Origin: Escherichia coli
GTDB lineage: Bacteria > Pseudomonadota > Gammaproteobacteria > Enterobacterales > Enterobacteriaceae
Assembly (NCBI RefSeq): GCF_003334815.1
Contig: NZ_QOWO01000008.1
Direction: 5' to 3' (one strand)
DNA length: 64,000 bases
Part shown: positions 2,303-22,448 of the stretch, in pieces
Layout: every line of letters begins with the position of its first letter
Numbering within the stretch: position 1 is the stretch's first letter
Program-made: the position numbers and the translations under genes
The notes under the pieces: generated by a model
Databases searched by the model: none
Told to the model about the DNA's origin: nothing
The model's input: the letters and a program-made list of their open reading frames with translations, nothing else

Positions 2303-2507
2303 AAGGATGAAGAAAACTTGCGAGGTGTCTCGATGAACTGAAAAATGGCACAGTATAATTTATTCTACAGGTTATATTGGAAGCAAATATTTTAATATTA
2401 CATATTCAGTGAAGAAATGCGTAATAAAAATATACATTGCGCCTCCTGAAAAAATAAATTTTTTATGCTATTACGTATATTTGTATCTATTTCAATGGAA
2501 TGACAAC

Positions 2508-3110
2508 GTGAATATTAATTACCCTGCTGAATATGAAATTGGAGATATCGTCTTTACATGTATAGGTGCTGCCTTATTTGGTCAAATATCAGCTGCATCA
2601 AATTGCTGGAGTAATCACGTCGGGATCATTATCGGTCATAACGGTGAAGACTTCCTGGTTGCAGAAAGCCGGGTTCCCCTTTCAACCATCACCACGCTAT
2701 CTCGTTTTATTAAACGTTCGTCTAATCAACGCTATGCTATAAAGCGATTAGACGCTGGGCTGACAGAACGACAAAAACAACGAATTGTTGAACAGGTTCC
2801 CTCCCGGCTACGCAAACTTTACCACACCGGTTTTAAATACGAATCTTCGCGCCAGTTCTGTTCAAAATTTGTTTTTGATATTTATAAAGAAGCGCTATGT
2901 ATTCCGGTGGGTGAAATAGAGACGTTTGGAGAATTGTTAAATAGCAATCCGAATGCAAAACTCACTTTCTGGAAATTCTGGTTCCTGGGTTCTATTCCGT
3001 GGGAGCGTAAAACCGTCACGCCAGCCAGTTTGTGGCATCATCCGGGTTTGGTGTTGATTCATGCGGAGGGAGTGGAAACGCCTCAGCCGGAACTGACCGA
3101 GGCGGTATAA
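2508..3110 (+). CDS. yebB: Uncharacterized protein YebB (200 aa form, GTG start); six-frame ORF extends to 2409
   Basis: Translation [17 protein letters not shown]... matches YebB; AT-rich gene. Confidence 0.75.
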
Positions 3111-3111
3111 C

Positions 3112-3633
3112 TTAACGCAGTCGCCCTCTCGCCAGGTTCAGCCGCGATTCGCTCATCTGCATCGCATTCTGACTAACGTGGCAGTGGGTGATAGCAATCG
3201 CCAGCGCATCGGCGGCATCCGCCTGTGGATTAGCGGGCAGTTTCAGCAAGGTGCGGACCATATGCTGCACCTGGCTTTTTTCGGCACTGCCAATACCTAC
3301 CACCGTTTGCTTTACCTGACGTGCCGCGTATTCAAATACTGGCAACTCCTGATTCACCGCCGCCACAATCGCCACGCCGCGCGCCTGGCCCAGTTTCAGG
3401 GCTGAGTCAGCGTTCTTTGCCATAAAGACTTGTTCAATGGCGAAATAATCAGGCTGGAACTGGGTGATGATTTCCGTCACGCCCGCATAGATGAGTTTCA
3501 GACGAGACGGTAAATCATCCACTTTGGTGCGGATGCATCCGCTACCCAGGTAGGACAGTTGCCTACCTACCTGGCGGATGACGCCGTAGCCGGTCACGCG
3601 CGAACCCGGATCAATGCCGAGAATAATAGCCAT
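3112..3633 (-). CDS. ruvC: Holliday junction resolvase RuvC
   Basis: [19 protein letters not shown]-terminus, 173 aa. Confidence 0.95.
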
Positions 3634-5006: not shown

Positions 5007-6779
5007 TCAGTTATTCTCAGCCTTCTTCACAACCTGAATGCTCAGCTCAGCCAGTGCAGTCGGGTTAGCAAAGCTCGGTGCTTCAGTCATCAGACACGCT
5101 GCCGCCGTGGTTTTCGGGAAGGCGATAACGTCACGGATATTGTCGGTGCCGGTCAGCAGCATGGTCAGACGGTCAAGACCGAATGCCAGACCTGCGTGCG
5201 GCGGAGTACCGTATTTCAGAGCGTCGAGCAGGAAGCCGAATTTCTCGCGCTGTTCCTCTTCGTTGATACCCAGAATACCAAACACCGTCTGCTGCATATC
5301 ACCATTATGGATACGTACTGAACCACCGCCCACTTCGTAACCATTGATGACCATATCGTAAGCGTTCGCCACCGCATTTTCCGGTGCAGCTTTCAGTTCT
5401 GCAGCCGTCATATCTTTCGGTGAGGTGAACGGATGGTGCATTGCCGTCAGGCCGCCTTCACCGTCGTCTTCAAACATCGGGAAGTCGATAACCCACAGCG
5501 GTGCCCATTTGCTTTCGTCGGTCAGACCAAGGTCTTTACCCACTTTCAGGCGCAGTGCACCCATCGCGTCGGCAACAATTTTCTTGTTGTCGGCACCGAA
5601 GAAAATCATATCGCCATCTTGCGCGGCAGTACGATCCAGGATGTCTTCGATGATTTCTGCATTAAGGAACTTCGCTACCGGGCTGTTGATACCTTCCAGA
5701 CCTTTCGCGCGTTCGTTAACTTTGATGTAAGCCAGACCTTTCGCGCCGTAGATTTTAACGAAGTTACCGTATTCGTCGATCTGCTTACGGGTCAGCGATG
5801 CGCCGCCCGGAACGCGCAGAGCCGCTACGCGACCTTTCGGATCGTTCGCCGGACCTGCAAATACAGCAAACTCAACAGATTTCAGCAGATCAGCAACGTC
5901 AGTCAGTTCCATCGGGTTACGCAGATCCGGTTTATCAGAACCATAACGGCGTTCTGCTTCCGCAAAGGTCATTACCGGGAAATCGCCCAGATCCACACCC
6001 TTCACTTCCAGCCACAGATGACGCACCAGCGCTTCCATCACTTCACGCACTTGCGGCGCGGTCATGAAAGAAGTTTCCACATCGATCTGAGTAAATTCAG
6101 GCTGACGGTCAGCACGCAGGTCTTCGTCACGGAAGCATTTAACGATCTGATAGTAACGGTCAAAACCGGACATCATCAGCAGCTGTTTGAACAACTGCGG
6201 GGATTGCGGCAGTGCGTAGAATTTACCTTTGTGCACACGAGAAGGCACCAGGTAGTCACGCGCGCCTTCCGGCGTGGCTTTGGTCAGCATCGGAGTTTCG
6301 ATGTCGAGGAAGCCGTGGTCATCCATAAAACGGCGCACCAGGCTGGTGATTTTAGCGCGGGTTTTCAGGCGCTGAGCCATTTCCGGACGACGCAGGTCGA
6401 GGTAGCGGTATTTCAGACGCGCTTCTTCGGTGTTGACGTGGTTAGAGTCAAGCGGCAGAACATCTGCGCGGTTGATGATAGTCAGCGAGGACGCCAGCAC
6501 TTCGATTTCGCCGGTCGCCATATCGCGGTTAATATTTTTTTCGTCACGCGCACGTACGGTGCCCGTGACCTGAATGCAGAACTCATTACGCAGTTCAGAG
6601 GCCAGCTTTAACGCGTCCGCACGATCCGGATCGAAAAATACCTGCACGATACCTTCGCGGTCGCGCATATCGATGAAGATCAGGCTACCAAGATCACGAC
6701 GACGGTTGACCCAACCACACAGAGTCACCTGCTGCCCCACGTGGGACAAACGGAGCTGTCCACAATATTCTGTACGCAT
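5007..6779 (-). CDS. aspS: Aspartate--tRNA ligase
   Basis: 590 aa class II aa[26 protein letters not shown]. Confidence 0.97.
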
Positions 6780-14389: not shown

Positions 14390-14696
14390 AGATTCCTCTA
14401 ATTAAATTACTGGACACCGAAATCATTGTATAATTAAATATACAACGAATTAACCGCTTGCATAATTAGGCACAACACTGCCTGAAACAATCGATAAAGA
14501 ATATGATTTATTACAATGTAATCATTAATTGCTAAGGAATAACCCAGTTGCTATTTAGAATATATATTTATCAGTTTTAGTAATTTAAATCCCATAATTA
14601 ATGTGAATATATACAATATTTTTAGCACAACGCTATGCGCACTGTCACCCGCTCAACAGATCACGGTTATCGTTCGTTTTTTATACTGTTCAGGGA

Positions 14697-15532
<836 letters not shown>

Positions 15533-16318: not shown

Positions 16319-18052
16319 GTGAATATTCAGGCTCTTCTCTCAGAAAAAGTCCGTCAGGCCATGATTGCGGCAGGCGCGCCTGCGGATTGCGAACCGCAGG
16401 TTCGTCAGTCAGCAAAAGTTCAGTTCGGCGACTATCAGGCTAACGGCATGATGGCAGTTGCTAAAAAACTGGGTATGGCACCGCGACAATTAGCAGAGCA
16501 GGTGCTGACTCATCTGGATCTTAACGGTATCGCCAGCAAAGTTGAGATCGCCGGTCCAGGCTTTATCAACATTTTCCTTGATCCGGCATTCCTGGCTGAA
16601 CATGTTCAGCAGGCGCTGGCGTCCGATCGTCTCGGTGTTGCTACGCCAGAAAAACAGACCATTGTGGTTGACTACTCTGCGCCAAACGTGGCGAAAGAGA
16701 TGCATGTCGGTCACCTGCGCTCTACCATTATTGGTGACGCAGCAGTGCGTACTCTGGAGTTCCTCGGTCACAAAGTGATTCGCGCAAACCACGTCGGCGA
16801 CTGGGGCACTCAGTTCGGTATGCTGATTGCATGGCTGGAAAAGCAGCAGCAGGAAAACGCCGGTGAAATGGAGCTGGCTGACCTTGAAGGTTTCTACCGC
16901 GATGCGAAAAAGCATTACGATGAAGATGAAGAGTTCGCCGAGCGCGCACGTAACTACGTGGTAAAACTGCAAAGCGGTGACGAATATTTCCGCGAGATGT
17001 GGCGCAAACTGGTCGACATCACCATGACGCAGAACCAGATCACCTACGATCGTCTCAACGTGACGCTGACCCGTGATGACGTGATGGGCGAAAGCCTCTA
17101 CAACCCGATGCTGCCAGGAATTGTGGCGGATCTCAAAGCCAAAGGTCTGGCAGTAGAAAGCGAAGGGGCGACCGTCGTATTCCTTGATGAGTTTAAAAAC
17201 AAGGAAGGCGAACCGATGGGCGTGATCATTCAGAAGAAAGATGGCGGCTATCTCTACACCACCACTGATATCGCCTGTGCGAAATATCGTTATGAAACAC
17301 TGCATGCCGATCGCGTGCTGTATTACATCGACTCCCGTCAGCATCAACACCTGATGCAGGCATGGGCGATCGTCCGTAAAGCAGGCTATGTACCGGAATC
17401 CGTACCGCTGGAACACCACATGTTCGGCATGATGCTGGGTAAAGACGGCAAACCGTTCAAAACCCGCGCGGGTGGTACAGTGAAACTGGCCGATCTGCTG
17501 GATGAAGCCCTGGAACGTGCACGCCGTCTGGTGGCAGAAAAGAACCCGGATATGCCAGCCGACGAGCTGGAAAAACTGGCTAACGCGGTTGGTATTGGTG
17601 CGGTGAAATATGCGGATCTCTCCAAAAACCGCACCACGGACTACATCTTCGACTGGGACAACATGCTGGCGTTTGAGGGTAATACCGCGCCATACATGCA
17701 GTATGCATACACGCGTGTATTGTCCGTGTTCCGTAAAGCAGAAATTGACGAAGAGCAACTGGCTGCAGCTCCGGTTATCATCCGTGAAGATCGTGAAGCG
17801 CAACTGGCAGCTCGCCTGCTGCAGTTTGAAGAAACCCTCACCGTGGTTGCCCGTGAAGGCACGCCGCATGTAATGTGTGCTTACCTGTACGATCTGGCCG
17901 GTCTGTTCTCTGGCTTCTACGAGCACTGCCCGATCCTCAGCGCAGAAAACGAAGAAGTGCGTAACAGCCGTCTAAAACTGGCACAACTGACGGCGAAGAC
18001 GCTGAAGCTGGGTCTGGATACGCTGGGTATTGAGACTGTAGAGCGTATGTAA
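16319..18052 (+). CDS. argS: Arginine--tRNA ligase (GTG start)
   Basis: 577 aa, [19 protein letters not shown] motif. Confidence 0.97.
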
Positions 18053-18073
18053 TCGATTTTTCGTGAGAGTGAA

Positions 18074-18106
18074 GCCTGATCAGGGTTAGCCGATCAGGCT
18101 TTTTTA
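18074..18106 (+). terminator. Rho-independent terminator after argS
   Basis: gcctgatcagggttagccgatcaggc followed by TTTTTT. Confidence 0.8.
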
Positions 18107-18207
18107 TTGCCATCTAAATGTATTCTGAAAATGGACATGCCATTGTTTTCTCACTGTTGGATAAGAGGCCAGAAGCGTAATATCCGGCCCCAGGGAAACG
18201 ATAACGG

Positions 18208-18717
18208 TTGAATTTAAGGAATACCGCAGTGTTTAAATTTCTTGTATTAACATTAGGCATTATCTCTTGCCAGGCTTACGCAGAAGATACGGTTATAGTA
18301 AACGACCATGACATTTCAGCCATCAAAGATTGTTGGCAAAAAAATTCAGATGATGATACTGACGTTAACGTGATCAAATCATGCCTGCGACAAGAATACA
18401 ATCTCGTCGATGCGCAATTAAATAAAGCCTATGGTGAAGCTTATCGTTATATAGAACAAGTGCCACGCACAGGTGTAAAAAAACCTGATACCGAACAACT
18501 TAACTTGCTTAAAAAATCACAGCGAGCCTGGCTGGATTTTAGGGACAAAGAATGTGAATTAATCCTTTCAAATGAGGACGTTCAGGATTTAAGTGACCCT
18601 TATTCTGAATCAGAATGGCTCTCATGTATGATCATACAGACCAATACGCGAACTCGCCAGTTGCAGCTATACCGTAACTCTGAAGATTTTTATCCAAGCC
18701 CTTTGACAAGAGGATAA
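18208..18717 (+). CDS. yecT: Uncharacterized secreted protein YecT (start codon uncertain)
   Basis: 169 aa ORF with N-terminal signal peptide; AT-rich. Confidence 0.75.
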   Translation: MNLRNTAVFKFLVLTLGIISCQAYAEDTVIVNDHDISAIKDCWQKNSDDDTDVNVIKSCLRQEYNLVDAQLNKAYGEAYRYIEQVPRTGVKKPDTEQLNLLKKSQRAWLDFRDKECELILSNEDVQDLSDPYSESEWLSCMIIQTNTRTRQLQLYRNSEDFYPSPLTRG

Positions 18718-18836
18718 TTCACATCTTTTTGGCATGTTTTGTTGCAAGCTATTCCTGATAAATAATTGCAACAAGACATCGAGCCTTTTTCACTGAGTTA
18801 TTAAACATACTCGCGAGCGCGTAATTTTTTTGTCCT

Positions 18837-19229
18837 TCAGCGATAATTCACAATCACTTCATTACGTTGTACCTTTAGCGGTGGAATTAACCGCCCACCG
18901 CCTGGCACTTCCCAGATAAATCGCAACGGTTCTGCTGCCGCTATACCGGAAAAGGCCACGGTGGTTCCGCTCTGCCCCTCTAATTCCACACAACGAGATT
19001 GCGAACACAAGCGAACCCGCAGTCCTGAAGGTGTCGGGCCGATAAGCTGATAACGCCACGCTACCAGCGTCATCAATCCTGAAGCAGGTTGTCGCGTAGA
19101 AAGAGGCGCAGACGACATCGACTCACCGCGATGATTTAGCGTAATTCCTACACTACTTGCCTGCCACATCCCCTCCCCGGCGGCTTGCACCAGCAGCGGA
19201 AACAATAATATTGCTAATAAGGTTCTCAT
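18837..19229 (-). CDS. flhE: Flagellar protein FlhE
   Basis: 130 aa, signal peptide, downstream of flhA. Confidence 0.9.
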   Translation of the reverse strand: MRTLLAILLFPLLVQAAGEGMWQASSVGITLNHRGESMSSAPLSTRQPASGLMTLVAWRYQLIGPTPSGLRVRLCSQSRCVELEGQSGTTVAFSGIAAAEPLRFIWEVPGGGRLIPPLKVQRNEVIVNYR

Positions 19230-21307
19230 TATTTGCCGCCAATTGTCGCCGTCATGCGGATATGTCGGTTATCAGACAGTTCCAGATTCGACAGGACCAC
19301 TAACTGCGGCAAGCTGCGGCGCAGGAAGCGAGACAATAATGGTCGCAGCGCGTGGTTCACCAACAATACTGGCGGCGCACCCAGCATCTCCTGACGGGAT
19401 AGCGCTTCCTGAGTTTGCGCCAGTAAACGATCCGCCAGCCCTGGCTCCAGTCCTCCCCCGCCCTGCAGCGCCTGTAGTAACAAACGTTCCAGCGGTGTAT
19501 CGAGGCCAATAACATGGACTTCATCTTTGCCAGGAAACCACTGCTGGGTAATCGCCCGTCCCAACGCCACGCGCACGGCGGCGGTTAATTCATGTGGATC
19601 GCTTTGGATGGGCGCATGTTCCGCCAGCGTTTCGAGAATGGTGCGCATATCGCGAATCGGTACTTTTTCATCGAGGAGATTTTGCAGCACTTTATGCAGT
19701 GTGGTGAGCGTGACGACGCCAGGAACGAGATCTTCCGTCAGCTTTGGCATCTCCTGGGCGACGCGATCCAACAGCTGTTGCGCCTCCTGACGACCAAACA
19801 GCTCTGCGGCATGCTGGCTAATGAGGTGGTTAAGATGCGTTGCTACCACCGTGCTGGCCTCAACCACTGTGTACCCCTGAATCTGCGCCTGTTCTTTTAG
19901 CGCACTTTCAATCCAGATAGCATTCAGGCCAAATGCCGGATCGACGGTCGCCTCACCAGGTAACGTCCCGGCAGCGGTTCCAGGGTTAATCGCCAGCCAG
20001 CGCCCCGGATAAGCATCACCACTGCCAATCTCCACGCCTTTCATCAAAATGCGATAGCGGGCAGGTTGCAGATCCATATTGTCGCGAATGTGCACCACTG
20101 GCGGCAGAAATCCCATCTCCTGGGCAAATTTCTTGCGGATACTGCGTATACGGCCCAACAACTCACCATCCTGCTGGAAATCGACCATCGGGATCAGTCG
20201 ATAACCCACTTCCATTCCCAGAGAATCTTCCAGTTGTACATCGTTCCACGTCGCTTCGACAACGGTATTATTCTCTGCCATTTTTACCGGTTTGGGTTCG
20301 GCAGGCGCTTTTTGTTCGCGTCCGCGTATCCACCAGGCCAGCCCGAGCAATCCGGCAGTGAACAGCAAAAATACCAGGTTCGGCATTCCAGGCACCAGGC
20401 CGAGTAAACCGAGCACGGCGGCGCTTAACAACATAACGCTTGGGTTACTGAAAAGCTGATTCACCATCTGCTCGCCAACATCCTGATCGGTGCTGACACG
20501 CGTAACGATGACCCCCGCGGCGGTAGAAATCACCAGCGCCGGAATTTGTGCCACCAGACCGTCGCCAATGGTCAATAGCGTATAACTTTCCGCCGCGTGT
20601 CCCATGCTCATGCCATGTTGCAGCACGCCGACCAGCAACCCGCCGACAATGTTAATGACCATGATGAGGATCCCGGCGATGGCATCGCCGCGAACAAACT
20701 TACTTGCCCCGTCCATTGAGCCGTAAAAATCGGCTTCCTGAGTCACTTCGGAGCGGCGTTTTTTCGCCTCATCTTCACCAATCAATCCGGCGTTAAGGTC
20801 GGCGTCAATCGCCATCTGCTTACCCGGCATACCATCGAGAACAAAGCGCGCACCCACTTCTGCGATACGCCCGGCACCTTTGGTAATGACCATAAAGTTG
20901 ATGATCACGAGAATGACAAACACCACGATACCGATAGCGAAATTGCCACCAACGAGGAAGTGACCGAACGCTTCGACCACCTTCCCTGCCGCCGCCGCGC
21001 CGGTATGCCCTTCCATTAAAATGATACGGGTTGAAGCCACGTTAAGTGCCAGACGCAACAGCGTGGTAAACAACAGAATGGTCGGAAACGCAGCAAACTC
21101 AAGCGTGCGCTGGGTAAACATCGCCACCAGCAACACCATGATCGACAAGGCAATATTGAAGGTAAACAACAGGTCGAGTATGAATGCGGGCAGTGGCAGC
21201 ACCATCATCGACAAGATCAACAGGATCAAAATCGGTCCGGCAAGGATCTGCCATTGTGTCGATTTCAGGTTTGCGGGCAGGCGCAGCATCGCGGCCAGAT
21301 TACTCAT
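19229..21307 (-). CDS. flhA: Flagellar export apparatus protein FlhA
   Basis: 692 aa from MSNLAAMLRLPANLKS; six-frame ORF over-extended to 21382. Confidence 0.93.
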   Translation of the reverse strand: MSNLAAMLRLPANLKSTQWQILAGPILILLILSMMVLPLPAFILDLLFTFNIALSIMVLLVAMFTQRTLEFAAFPTILLFTTLLRLALNVASTRIILMEGHTGAAAAGKVVEAFGHFLVGGNFAIGIVVFVILVIINFMVITKGAGRIAEVGARFVLDGMPGKQMAIDADLNAGLIGEDEAKKRRSEVTQEADFYGSMDGASKFVRGDAIAGILIMVINIVGGLLVGVLQHGMSMGHAAESYTLLTIGDGLVAQIPALVISTAAGVIVTRVSTDQDVGEQMVNQLFSNPSVMLLSAAVLGLLGLVPGMPNLVFLLFTAGLLGLAWWIRGREQKAPAEPKPVKMAENNTVVEATWNDVQLEDSLGMEVGYRLIPMVDFQQDGELLGRIRSIRKKFAQEMGFLPPVVHIRDNMDLQPARYRILMKGVEIGSGDAYPGRWLAINPGTAAGTLPGEATVDPAFGLNAIWIESALKEQAQIQGYTVVEASTVVATHLNHLISQHAAELFGRQEAQQLLDRVAQEMPKLTEDLVPGVVTLTTLHKVLQNLLDEKVPIRDMRTILETLAEHAPIQSDPHELTAAVRVALGRAITQQWFPGKDEVHVIGLDTPLERLLLQALQGGGGLEPGLADRLLAQTQEALSRQEMLGAPPVLLVNHALRPLLSRFLRRSLPQLVVLSNLELSDNRHIRMTATIGGK

Positions 21308-22448
21308 GGGTCGGTTTCTCGTTAATAAAATCCAGGGCTTCCGGCACCGGAAGATGAGTAGGTTGTACAGGGCGCTGTCCACCAGCCAGACGCCAGCGTT
21401 TCAGTTGCCAGACCCAGGCCAGCACTTCCGCCACCGCGGCGTACAGTTGACCCGGGATTTGTTGACCAATCTCCGCATGTCGATACAGCGCTCGCGCCAG
21501 CGGCGGCGCTTCAAGCGTCGGGACGTTATTTTCAGCGCCAATTTCACGAATGCGCAGCGCGACCAGCCCTGCACCTTTAGCGACCACTTTCGGTGCGCTC
21601 ATTTTGTTTTCGTCATACTGCAACGCTACCGAATAGTGGGTCGGGTTATTGACAATGACATCCGCTTTCGGCACATCGGCCATCATCCGACGCCGTGCAG
21701 CAGCTCGCTGCATCTGACGGATCCGCCCTTTAACATGAGGGTCACCTTCGCTTTGTTTGAACTCATCACGAATATCCTGCCGTGACATACGCAGCTTTTT
21801 CAGGTGGCTGAATATTTGGAAAAAGACGTCAAATCCCACCATTGGAATGACACCAAGCACCACCAGCAGTGCGCATAGCCCTACCAAATCCATCGCATTA
21901 CCCATGGCGGTAATCGGAGACTCGGCCATCAAGCGCATCATCTGCGGCCAGTGATGCCAGAGAAAAAACCCCGTCACGCTGCCAACCAGGATGGTTTTCA
22001 AAATTGCTTTAAGCAACTCCGCGCCAGTCTGAGCCGAGAACATCCGTTTAATGCCCGGTAGCGGGTTGAGTTTGGAAAACTTCGGCTGCAAGGATTTGCC
22101 GCTAAATACCAGCCCTCCCAGCATGACCGGAGAAATGAGCGCCACCAGCACCACGCCGCTAATCAGCGGCAGCAGCGCCAGCATGGCTTCTCTGATCAGC
22201 AGAATAATCTGCCCGAGGATCAGATTCGGGTCATTGATAATACTGTGATCAAAATGCAGCCCAGCGGAGAGCATGCCCGACAATCGACGGGCCAGCGACA
22301 CACCGCCAAACCAGATAACACTAACGCCCACCAGCAAAATCAGCAGTGAGGTCAGTTCACGGGAACGCGGGATTTGCCCCTCTTCCCGCGCTTTTTCTAG
22401 TCGGTGAGGTGTGGGGGCTTCTGTTTTGTCGTCGCTCTCGTCAGACAC
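21300..22448 (-). CDS. flhB: Flagellar export apparatus protein FlhB
   Basis: 382 aa, NPTH autocleavage motif, overlaps flhA start by 8 nt. Confidence 0.95.
   Translation of the reverse strand: MSDESDDKTEAPTPHRLEKAREEGQIPRSRELTSLLILLVGVSVIWFGGVSLARRLSGMLSAGLHFDHSIINDPNLILGQIILLIREAMLALLPLISGVVLVALISPVMLGGLVFSGKSLQPKFSKLNPLPGIKRMFSAQTGAELLKAILKTILVGSVTGFFLWHHWPQMMRLMAESPITAMGNAMDLVGLCALLVVLGVIPMVGFDVFFQIFSHLKKLRMSRQDIRDEFKQSEGDPHVKGRIRQMQRAAARRRMMADVPKADVIVNNPTHYSVALQYDENKMSAPKVVAKGAGLVALRIREIGAENNVPTLEAPPLARALYRHAEIGQQIPGQLYAAVAEVLAWVWQLKRWRLAGGQRPVQPTHLPVPEALDFINEKPTHE

Follow-up and report, generated by a model that had tools for sequence, protein, structure and literature searches.

Introduction

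One type VI secretion system (T6SS) immunity protein with a DUF1311 domain is on record, namely Etsi4 of enterohaemorrhagic Escherichia coli (EHEC), which is the only experimentally tested one and comes with rescue data. Proteins with this domain, also called LprI (Pfam PF07007), were predicted to be immunity or orphan-immunity proteins in the hcp island of Pantoea agglomerans (PMC9796082), and the available part of the WHIX dataset holds 44 mentions of LprI-domain proteins beside WHIX effectors (PMC12135965). In Salmonella Typhimurium, the four cysteines of the LprI-domain protein ScwA form two disulfides that depend on DsbA (PMC7933661). The gene considered here, yecT, encodes a further LprI/DUF1311 protein, lies between argS and flhE in a 64,000-nt stretch of E. 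coli DNA (contig NZ_QOWO01000008.1 of assembly GCF_003334815.1, hereafter the window), and is one of the E. coli K-12 y-genes that have yet to be characterised. Whilst the gene and its family were known already, what is new is the assignment of yecT to a clade of T6SS islands, with a testable orphan-immunity function.

The initial annotation of this DNA had left the function of yecT as unknown, which can be improved upon, since the genomic context of its relatives and the DUF1311 precedents suggest toxin neutralisation. By analogy with these proteins, yecT may encode an orphan T6SS immunity protein that is dampened by H-NS and inducible by BglJ-RcsB, a reading to which we give a probability of about one half.

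Relatives of YecT in T6SS Islands

The YecT clade is narrow, with six sequences below 1e-30 among 1.84 billion representatives, after which the scores are those of generic DUF1311 proteins. Relatives with 59–65% identity were identified in seven other enterobacterial genera (Citrobacter tructae-like, Enterobacter sp., Yersinia intermedia/kristensenii, Mangrovibacter, Cedecea davisae, Pantoea dispersa, and rare Salmonella enterica), and in all seven the YecT-like gene lies within a T6SS cluster, as the last gene of a variable effector/immunity island behind ClpV-VgrG. It is positioned directly upstream of PAAR, which is followed by a conserved protein of 386–392 amino acids (aa), TssM, TssA, and TssF. 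Among themselves, the copies within the T6SS clusters of Salmonella, Cedecea, Pantoea, and Mangrovibacter share 85–97% identity.

The effectors encoded in these islands are 48–54% identical across genera over their first ∼545 residues, and the motif WHGG[IM]H at residues 41–46 agrees with WHxxxH, the signature described for the WHIX secretion domain (PMC12135965). Their C-termini swap peptidoglycan hydrolase domains, namely CHAP (Citrobacter, L003 917–3820), Muramidase (Salmonella, L093 4134–6386), and Pesticin-like domains (Cedecea, L100 4435–6723), plus an orphan M23 and phage-lysozyme module, and small secreted proteins are encoded after each effector. The minimal island, found in Cedecea and Pantoea, consists of a WHIX-Pesticin effector, a 124-aa LprI protein, the YecT-like protein, and PAAR.

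Such linkage appears to be specific to the YecT clade. Among the matches listed, only 1 of 80 distant DUF1311 loci, that of Siccibacter, had T6SS genes within 8 kb; these loci, taken from a contig scan with the pattern QRAWxxFRD, encode ∼30%-identical relatives in unrelated Proteobacteria. The YecT-like gene has just one other constant neighbour, the 386–392-aa protein between PAAR and TssM (contigs L003, L088, L091, L093, L098, L100, and L102), which has N-terminal transmembrane segments, is 42–90% identical across genera, gave no match in Pfam or NCBIfam, and may be a structural component, an adaptor, or an effector.

Outside these islands, a homologue with 64% identity was found at 6001–6585 of contig L004 (Logan SRR29213564), which has a guanine-cytosine (GC) content of 0.346 that the gene itself matches. 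The contig is Helicobacter-like, its PurU sharing 74% identity with the Helicobacter cappadocius protein, and the YecT homologue lies two genes from flgE/flgD, an apparent transfer between phyla of gut bacteria. With this copy and the patchy distribution of the clade, horizontal movement of the family is real. Two further relatives of 38–40% identity (P0119 and P0121) are on short contigs, between a carbonic anhydrase gene and leuD, and are uninformative. A metagenome scan with a pattern that excludes E. coli gave no match, and with a broader pattern all 44 of 44 loci were the E. coli argS-yecT-flhE arrangement; in none of the metagenome loci scanned does a YecT-clade gene come right behind a toxin.

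Two observations were made on the Pantoea dispersa contig (L102, 645–1463 and 6837–8417). An IS3-family element (HTH_Tnp_1 and rve) has severed the 5′ end of the YecT-like gene there. Separately, a 272-aa protein with a C-terminal LprI domain is encoded between clpV and vgrG, with the size and architecture of Salmonella ScwA and of 271-aa LprI proteins that appear beside WHIX effectors in the available part of the published dataset (PMC12135965). ScwA-type proteins may therefore be T6SS-island immunity proteins as well.

YecT as a Putative Orphan Immunity Protein

If yecT is indeed an orphan immunity gene, its product would be exported to the periplasm, form a disulfide-braced helical bundle, and bind an incoming toxin of the peptidoglycan hydrolase kind (lysozyme-, muramidase-, or amidase-type) at its catalytic face, thereby blocking it. 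The toxin would arrive on WHIX-class effectors injected by rival Enterobacterales, and YecT would shield those E. coli strains in which the matching weapon is missing. The gene would be nearly silent, being AT-rich and partly repressed by H-NS/StpA, with BglJ-RcsB as the activator that turns it on. As to its history, yecT may be a relic of, or a capture from, a T6SS island, kept for protection against the weapons of neighbours, and the PAAR-proximal YecT-like gene might be an ancestral immunity gene left at the distal end of the island during exchange of toxin modules. We infer the binding of a toxin by YecT, and the identity of that toxin, by analogy, from the T6SS context of its relatives and the published DUF1311 immunity proteins. 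Fast amino acid change, presence/absence polymorphism, AT-richness across the clade, and partial repression by H-NS/StpA are all commonly seen in effector-immunity cargo and are compatible with this role.

There are, however, several points that weigh against an immunity function. No effector or T6SS gene is found beside yecT in E. coli or E. fergusonii, whether in the window, the RefSeq genomes inspected, or the 44 metagenome loci, and the claim is therefore one of orphan immunity and not of a cognate pair. In the T6SS islands themselves, a small secreted protein always separates the effector from the YecT-like gene, and in Cedecea and Pantoea this intervening protein is a different LprI protein, that of 124 aa. 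The YecT-like protein might instead be a conserved accessory component, or a partner of the 386-aa protein adjacent to PAAR. YecT and Etsi4 are 21% identical (pairwise E-value of 0.007), which is a relationship at the level of family and not of orthology, and the fold match of YecT to TsiV3 was no better than that to many unrelated helical bundles. ScwA, a Salmonella protein with the same domain, regulates the MltD of its own cell and not a foreign toxin (PMC7933661).

A broader proposal can be made, though only tentatively, as we regard it as somewhat improbable in its full form: that K-12, the usual prey strain in T6SS work, carries a silenced chromosomal orphan immunity gene whose induction, through RcsB-BglJ or loss of H-NS, would protect specifically against a widespread WHIX-class peptidoglycan-hydrolase effector of competing Enterobacterales, that the distal island copy is ancestral, and that the Helicobacter copy reflects trade between phyla in the gut. 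If YecT is an immunity protein at all, the use of K-12 as “naive” prey in many laboratory competition assays would contain a hidden inducible variable, and resistance to attack by other bacteria in the gut would depend, at the strain level, on whether yecT is present (as in ∼65% of complete E. coli genomes) or absent (as in ST131-like strains).

Protein Family, Export, and Fold

The initial annotation described yecT as an orphan gene encoding a predicted secreted protein of 169 aa with conserved cysteines. The N-terminus does resemble a signal peptide and four conserved cysteines are present, but the RefSeq product is 162 aa in length, beginning at the GTG at 18229, and homology searches place it clearly in the Pfam family LprI/DUF1311 (E-value of 1.6e-17, 64.3 bits, model positions 1–106 of 106), which has many homologues and a family name in RefSeq. 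In a 70-sequence family alignment, conservation of C35, C52, C109, and C133 (numbered on the 162-aa protein) is complete or no lower than 90%, and all family-defining residues are retained in YecT.

The hydrophobic stretch at the N-terminus closes with a [NS/Q]-[AIV]-[YH]-A motif that is conserved in all members of the YecT clade. A lipobox-like IISC is also present at residues 11–14, with its cysteine found only in E. coli and E. fergusonii; a lipoprotein anchored through IISC is thus the alternative to a soluble protein cleaved after AYA, but the IISC is probably unused. From the hydrophobic signal with its AYA-ED motif and the conserved cysteine pairs, we infer a periplasmic location. The AlphaFold2 model has an N-terminal helix at residues 3–12 followed by coil, and the fold is all-alpha, like that of the solved DUF1311 structure (PDB 3gi7), to which a profile search matched YecT with an E-value of 3.9e-15. 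The only match from a PDB search with the single protein sequence, CFAP143 (E-value of 0.2), was rejected as spurious. YecT thus appears to be a small, all-helical LprI/DUF1311 protein stabilised by predicted disulfides. The PADLOC models of anti-phage defence gave no match to it.

RefSeq names the BW25113 product “lysozyme inhibitor LprI family protein,” and this name, which is also that of the family, raises the possibility that YecT modulates the peptidoglycan hydrolases of its own cell (a lytic transglycosylase or amidase), or inhibits host c- or g-type lysozyme, and so tunes wall turnover or protects under envelope stress. ScwA offers a parallel, being a periplasmic LprI-domain protein with two disulfides that raises MltD levels (PMC7933661); control by RcsB would fit an envelope role, and the chromosomal site of yecT has not changed since before the split of E. 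coli and E. fergusonii. The Pfam scan, however, reports LprI only, and the MliC domain (PF09864), argued to carry the inhibitory activity of Mycobacterium tuberculosis LprI, was not found in YecT, whilst deletion of scwA left lysozyme sensitivity unchanged (PMC7933661). A housekeeping regulator would also not be expected to be lost from one third of E. coli, to have a nonsynonymous substitution rate (dN) 4–30 times faster than that of its neighbours, or to be located in the T6SS islands of seven genera. A role in the cell's own wall metabolism or against host lysozyme is therefore considered unlikely.

Base Composition and Codon Usage

For composition, yecT was scored against the other 57 of the 58 genes in the window that encode at least 100 aa. 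With a GC content of 0.386–0.389 and a third-position GC content (GC3) of 0.337–0.341, in a window with an overall GC content of 0.504, it is the lowest of the 58 in both measures (z = -4.16 and z = -4.20, respectively). Measured against the other window genes, its codon adaptation is 0.601, compared with a mean of 0.690 (z = -2.08, rank 2/58). When the protein was recoded with window-average codons the expected GC content was 0.462, compared with 0.391 observed, meaning that about half of the GC deficit is due to codon choice, with amino acid content contributing too. The AT-richness relative to neighbouring genes that was noted initially is thus borne out, and the comparison of GC content and codon usage proposed at that time found both to be strongly atypical, not indistinguishable from those of the neighbours. 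All YecT-clade genes have a GC content of 0.35–0.39 regardless of the host, for which values range from 0.48 to 0.56.

Two other AT-rich segments were observed in the window. The second most AT-rich gene is yebB (2409–3110, + strand), between ruvC and ruvA, with a GC content of 0.417, a GC3 of 0.389, and a codon adaptation index of 0.609; its product matches the NCBIfam “YebB family permuted papain-like enzyme” with 407 bits. The spacer between the torY-like open reading frame (ORF) and cutC (14390–14776) has a GC content of ∼0.35 in 400-nt windows, comparable to that of yecT; in the part inspected for coding potential, from 15000 onward, no ORF reaches 40 aa.

History of yecT in Escherichia

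The flanks argS and flhE were matched in every one of 5,426 complete E. coli genomes, and yecT is essentially intact in 3,544–3,554 of them (∼65%). In strains of sequence type 131 (ST131) and similar strains the gene is missing, and the argS-flhE spacer (801–852 of contigs L104 and L105, compared with 18053–18836 of the window) is 52 bp with a single hairpin terminator (-19.4 kcal/mol). A rarer type, HH97, has a 164-bp spacer in which ∼55 nt of yecT remain, and this coding remnant shows loss by deletion in that lineage. Insertions of IS1 occur among the complete E. coli genomes, and Shigella often has truncated copies. The 3′ arm of the ST131-type hairpin (GACATCGGCTTTTTT) resembles that of the K-12 yecT terminator (GACATCGAGCCTTTTT), and the end points of the deletion may lie within the terminator hairpins.

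In E. fergusonii, a DUF1311 gene occupies the identical argS-flhE site, with a product 55% identical to YecT, compared with 87–98% for CutC, YecM, ArgS, FlhE, FlhA, and FlhB. Between the two species, the synonymous substitution rate (dS) of yecT is 1.81 (neighbours 0.5–1.66), dN is 0.31 (neighbours 0.009–0.08), and dN/dS is 0.17 (neighbours 0.02–0.08), with a dN/dS of 0.22 between K-12 and O157. The gene is therefore under purifying selection, with a raised rate of amino acid substitution. As the sister species has the gene at the same site and dS is comparable to that of the neighbours, yecT was in place before the E. coli/E. fergusonii split, and any acquisition in Escherichia would be ancient and not recent. 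Its absence from about one third of E. coli is best read as repeated loss, because the outgroup has the gene and the HH97 variant keeps a coding fragment. Strong AT-richness can evidently persist in a gene that has remained at one site since before that split, and acquisition is therefore poorly dated by composition alone.

The genomic surroundings of E. fergusonii differ in another respect (contigs L085–L087, 11341–14501): flhB is followed by torD/torZ/torY-like genes instead of cheZ. There is no torZY between cmoB and cutC in this species, and the tor-like cluster lies on the opposite side of the flhBAE block to that of E. coli.

No insertion sequence element, integrase, or tRNA was seen flanking yecT in the window or in RefSeq, and in searches of plasmids and phages yecT was on no genuine plasmid and had no phage match. 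A plasmid or phage vehicle was rejected, as the close matches in the plasmid collection are E. coli-like chromosomal pieces filed as plasmids and one 5-kb “Klebsiella” record. A recently acquired islet was likewise rejected, since the sister species has yecT at the same site and there are no mobility genes or tRNA. The earlier proposal of horizontal acquisition is favoured by the atypical composition, the patchy clade, and the 64%-identical copy on the Helicobacter contig, but the event is not recent, mobility genes are lacking, and E. fergusonii has the gene; “horizontally acquired” holds for an ancient event at most.

These data also bear on whether yecT is a decaying remnant of an old horizontal acquisition that has no function, is silenced by H-NS, and is drifting toward loss. 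The AT-richness and poor codon adaptation, the partial repression by H-NS/StpA, the repeated loss through at least two independent deletion types and IS1 insertions, and the truncated copies common in Shigella would all agree with decay. However, the ORF is intact in 3,544–3,554 complete genomes, dN/dS is 0.17–0.22 and not ∼1, the family-defining residues are all kept, and a dedicated inducible promoter exists (PMC3950696), which makes a functionless remnant highly unlikely.

Regulation

The Rcs envelope-stress pathway is reported to aid the survival of E. coli under T6SS attack. For yecT, an argS-yecT intergenic lacZ fusion was activated by BglJ-RcsB, an hns stpA mutant had a moderate rise in yecT mRNA, and a motif search for BglJ-RcsB predicted sites at yecT and also at rhsA and rhsB (PMC3950696). 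As rhsA and rhsB are polymorphic-toxin loci, there are hints that the silent BglJ-RcsB regulon groups genes of interbacterial conflict. A candidate RcsB half-site that was spotted by eye in the spacer upstream of yecT matches the published core wwTTCykA. Scanning for the sigma-70 consensus gave no promoter there, with the sole promoter-like match (18333–18360) falling within the coding sequence. In E. coli O26, yecT was 2.1-fold up in meat with microbiota compared with meat without (PMC5543532). This induction and the activation by BglJ-RcsB fit an immunity function, albeit weakly.

Locus, Transcription Unit, and Flagellar Neighbours

The window is a segment of an E. coli K-12-type chromosome, with the order ruvBA ... 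aspS ... torZY-cutC-yecM-argS-yecT-flhEAB-che/mot-flhCD. Flanking yecT are argS (16319–18052, + strand) and flhE/flhA/flhB (18837–22448, - strand). The features of the locus are given in Table 1.

Table 1. Position of yecT and associated features in the window.
Feature	Position	Strand	Details
argS intrinsic terminator hairpin	18072–18106	+	Upstream bound of the yecT unit; AAGCCTGATC...GATCAGGCTT then T-run; inverted repeat
yecT promoter/regulatory region	18106–18228	+	Candidate RcsB half-site TATTCTGA at 18121–18128
In-frame upstream extension	18208–18228	+	7 codons from TTG (MNLRNTA); from ORF listing, first start codon taken mechanically
Shine-Dalgarno-like AAGGA	18216–18220	+	8 nt upstream of GTG 18229; read from sequence
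yecT coding sequence	18229–18717	+	162 aa plus stop; GTG start (RefSeq, identical sequence in BW25113)
Predicted signal peptide	18229–18282	+	Residues 1–18 (MFKFLVLTLGIISCQAYA); predicted signal-peptidase I cut after AYA, before ED; sequence inspection
yecT remnant in HH97-type yecT-less E. coli	18274–18330	+	Codons ∼16–34; alignment of HH97 164-bp argS-flhE spacer
LprI/DUF1311 domain	18331–18663	+	Residues 35–145 of 162-aa protein; cysteines C35, C52, C109, C133
yecT terminator	18731–18790	+	Long hairpin 18731–18785 then TTTTT; folding and inverted repeat

On the + strand, a yecT ORF runs from the TTG at 18208 to the stop at 18717 and would encode 169 aa. Its first seven codons are probably not translated, because the RefSeq GTG start has a Shine-Dalgarno sequence and the homologues begin at the equivalent residue: every YecT homologue starts at the position of GTG 18229, with M-[FLV]-[KR], and the aligned start in E. 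fergusonii is ATG. The extension itself is absent from all homologues and from RefSeq.

The gene is a stand-alone unit between the argS terminator (fold energy -22 kcal/mol, z = -4.4) and its own terminator (-24.5 kcal/mol, z = -2.2, for the fold of 18718–18836), and is convergent with flhE. A simple terminator scan missed both hairpins, which were recovered by folding; that of yecT was missed because of its long loop.

Within the argS-yecT spacer, RefSeq annotates a 14-codon gene, yecV (“protein YecV”; 18094–18138, - strand), which overlaps the argS terminator at its 3′ arm and T-run and is called hypothetical in O157. Downstream, an exact 11-nt direct repeat, GATAATTCACA, is present at 18713–18723, overlapping the yecT stop, and at 18842–18852, at the 3′ end of flhE, with the copies 129 nt apart. 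It is the sole direct repeat at yecT, and with ∼0.1 such pairs expected by chance in 921 nt its significance is marginal; it may be coincidental or the scar of a recombination event.

The position beside the flagellar region, between argS and flhE, had been pointed out initially and is confirmed, but no functional tie to flagella was found. Such a tie would exist if YecT were a periplasmic flagellar regulator like UmoC, feeding an envelope signal (e.g., Rcs) into flhDC as the Proteus umo genes do. The sole NCBIfam match of YecT is indeed the UmoC family, over the full 105-position model (E-value of 6e-9), yecT lies next to flhE in both E. coli and E. fergusonii, the Helicobacter copy is near flgE/flgD, and yecT is regulated through RcsB. 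At 36 bits, however, the match falls short of the curated cut-off, which is 120, and ten other DUF1311 proteins, including Etsi4, score 21.7–42.4 bits; with the same weak score in all DUF1311 proteins tested, it therefore reflects the shared domain only. Furthermore, yecT has its own promoter and terminator, converges on flhE, and is outside the flhBAE operon, about one third of E. coli genomes lack it yet have flhE, flhA, and flhB (all three are kept in the ST131-type genomes), umoC of Morganella is outside the flagellar locus, and the homologues of seven genera are in T6SS and not flagellar clusters. The chance that YecT is a flagellar regulator of this kind is therefore judged to be very small.

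Comparison With Known DUF1311/LprI Proteins

Amongst characterised or solved relatives, PP0307 of Pseudomonas putida (PDB 3gi7) is 14–16% identical to YecT, which differs in having an extra N-terminal helix (residues 30–37) and a C-terminal tail. UmoC of Proteus mirabilis (NCBIfam NF041434) is likewise a small envelope protein of DUF1311 type, and its model aligns end to end with YecT, but at 36 bits against the cut-off of 120 this likeness is common to all DUF1311 proteins. LprI of M. tuberculosis (Rv1541c), the lysozyme-inhibiting lipoprotein from which the Pfam family takes its name, shares with YecT the LprI domain, export (predicted for YecT), and a lipobox (the IISC of YecT being lipobox-like and probably unused), but has an extra MliC domain thought to carry the inhibition (PMC7933661), which YecT does not possess.

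The similarity to ScwA (SL1344_0490) lies in an LprI domain with four conserved cysteines, periplasmic in ScwA and predicted to be so in YecT, and in a distribution restricted to some enterobacteria. ScwA is, however, 275 aa in length with a C-terminal domain, falls outside the YecT clade, acts on MltD levels of its own cell, and has no lysozyme phenotype. The LprI proteins of P. agglomerans and the WHIX dataset share with the YecT clade the domain, a predicted signal peptide, and the setting in enterobacterial T6SS effector/immunity islands, but they are adjacent to toxins, whereas members of the YecT clade are at least one gene away and proximal to PAAR.

Etsi4 is on a separate branch of the family tree from YecT, and adjoins its effector inside a T6SS cluster whereas yecT is between argS and flhE. 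Nevertheless, both are small DUF1311/LprI proteins of E. coli (149 aa for Etsi4 and 162 aa for YecT), secreted or, for YecT, predicted to be so, and EHEC keeps the immunity gene while the effector is broken, making Etsi4 a de facto orphan, like YecT.

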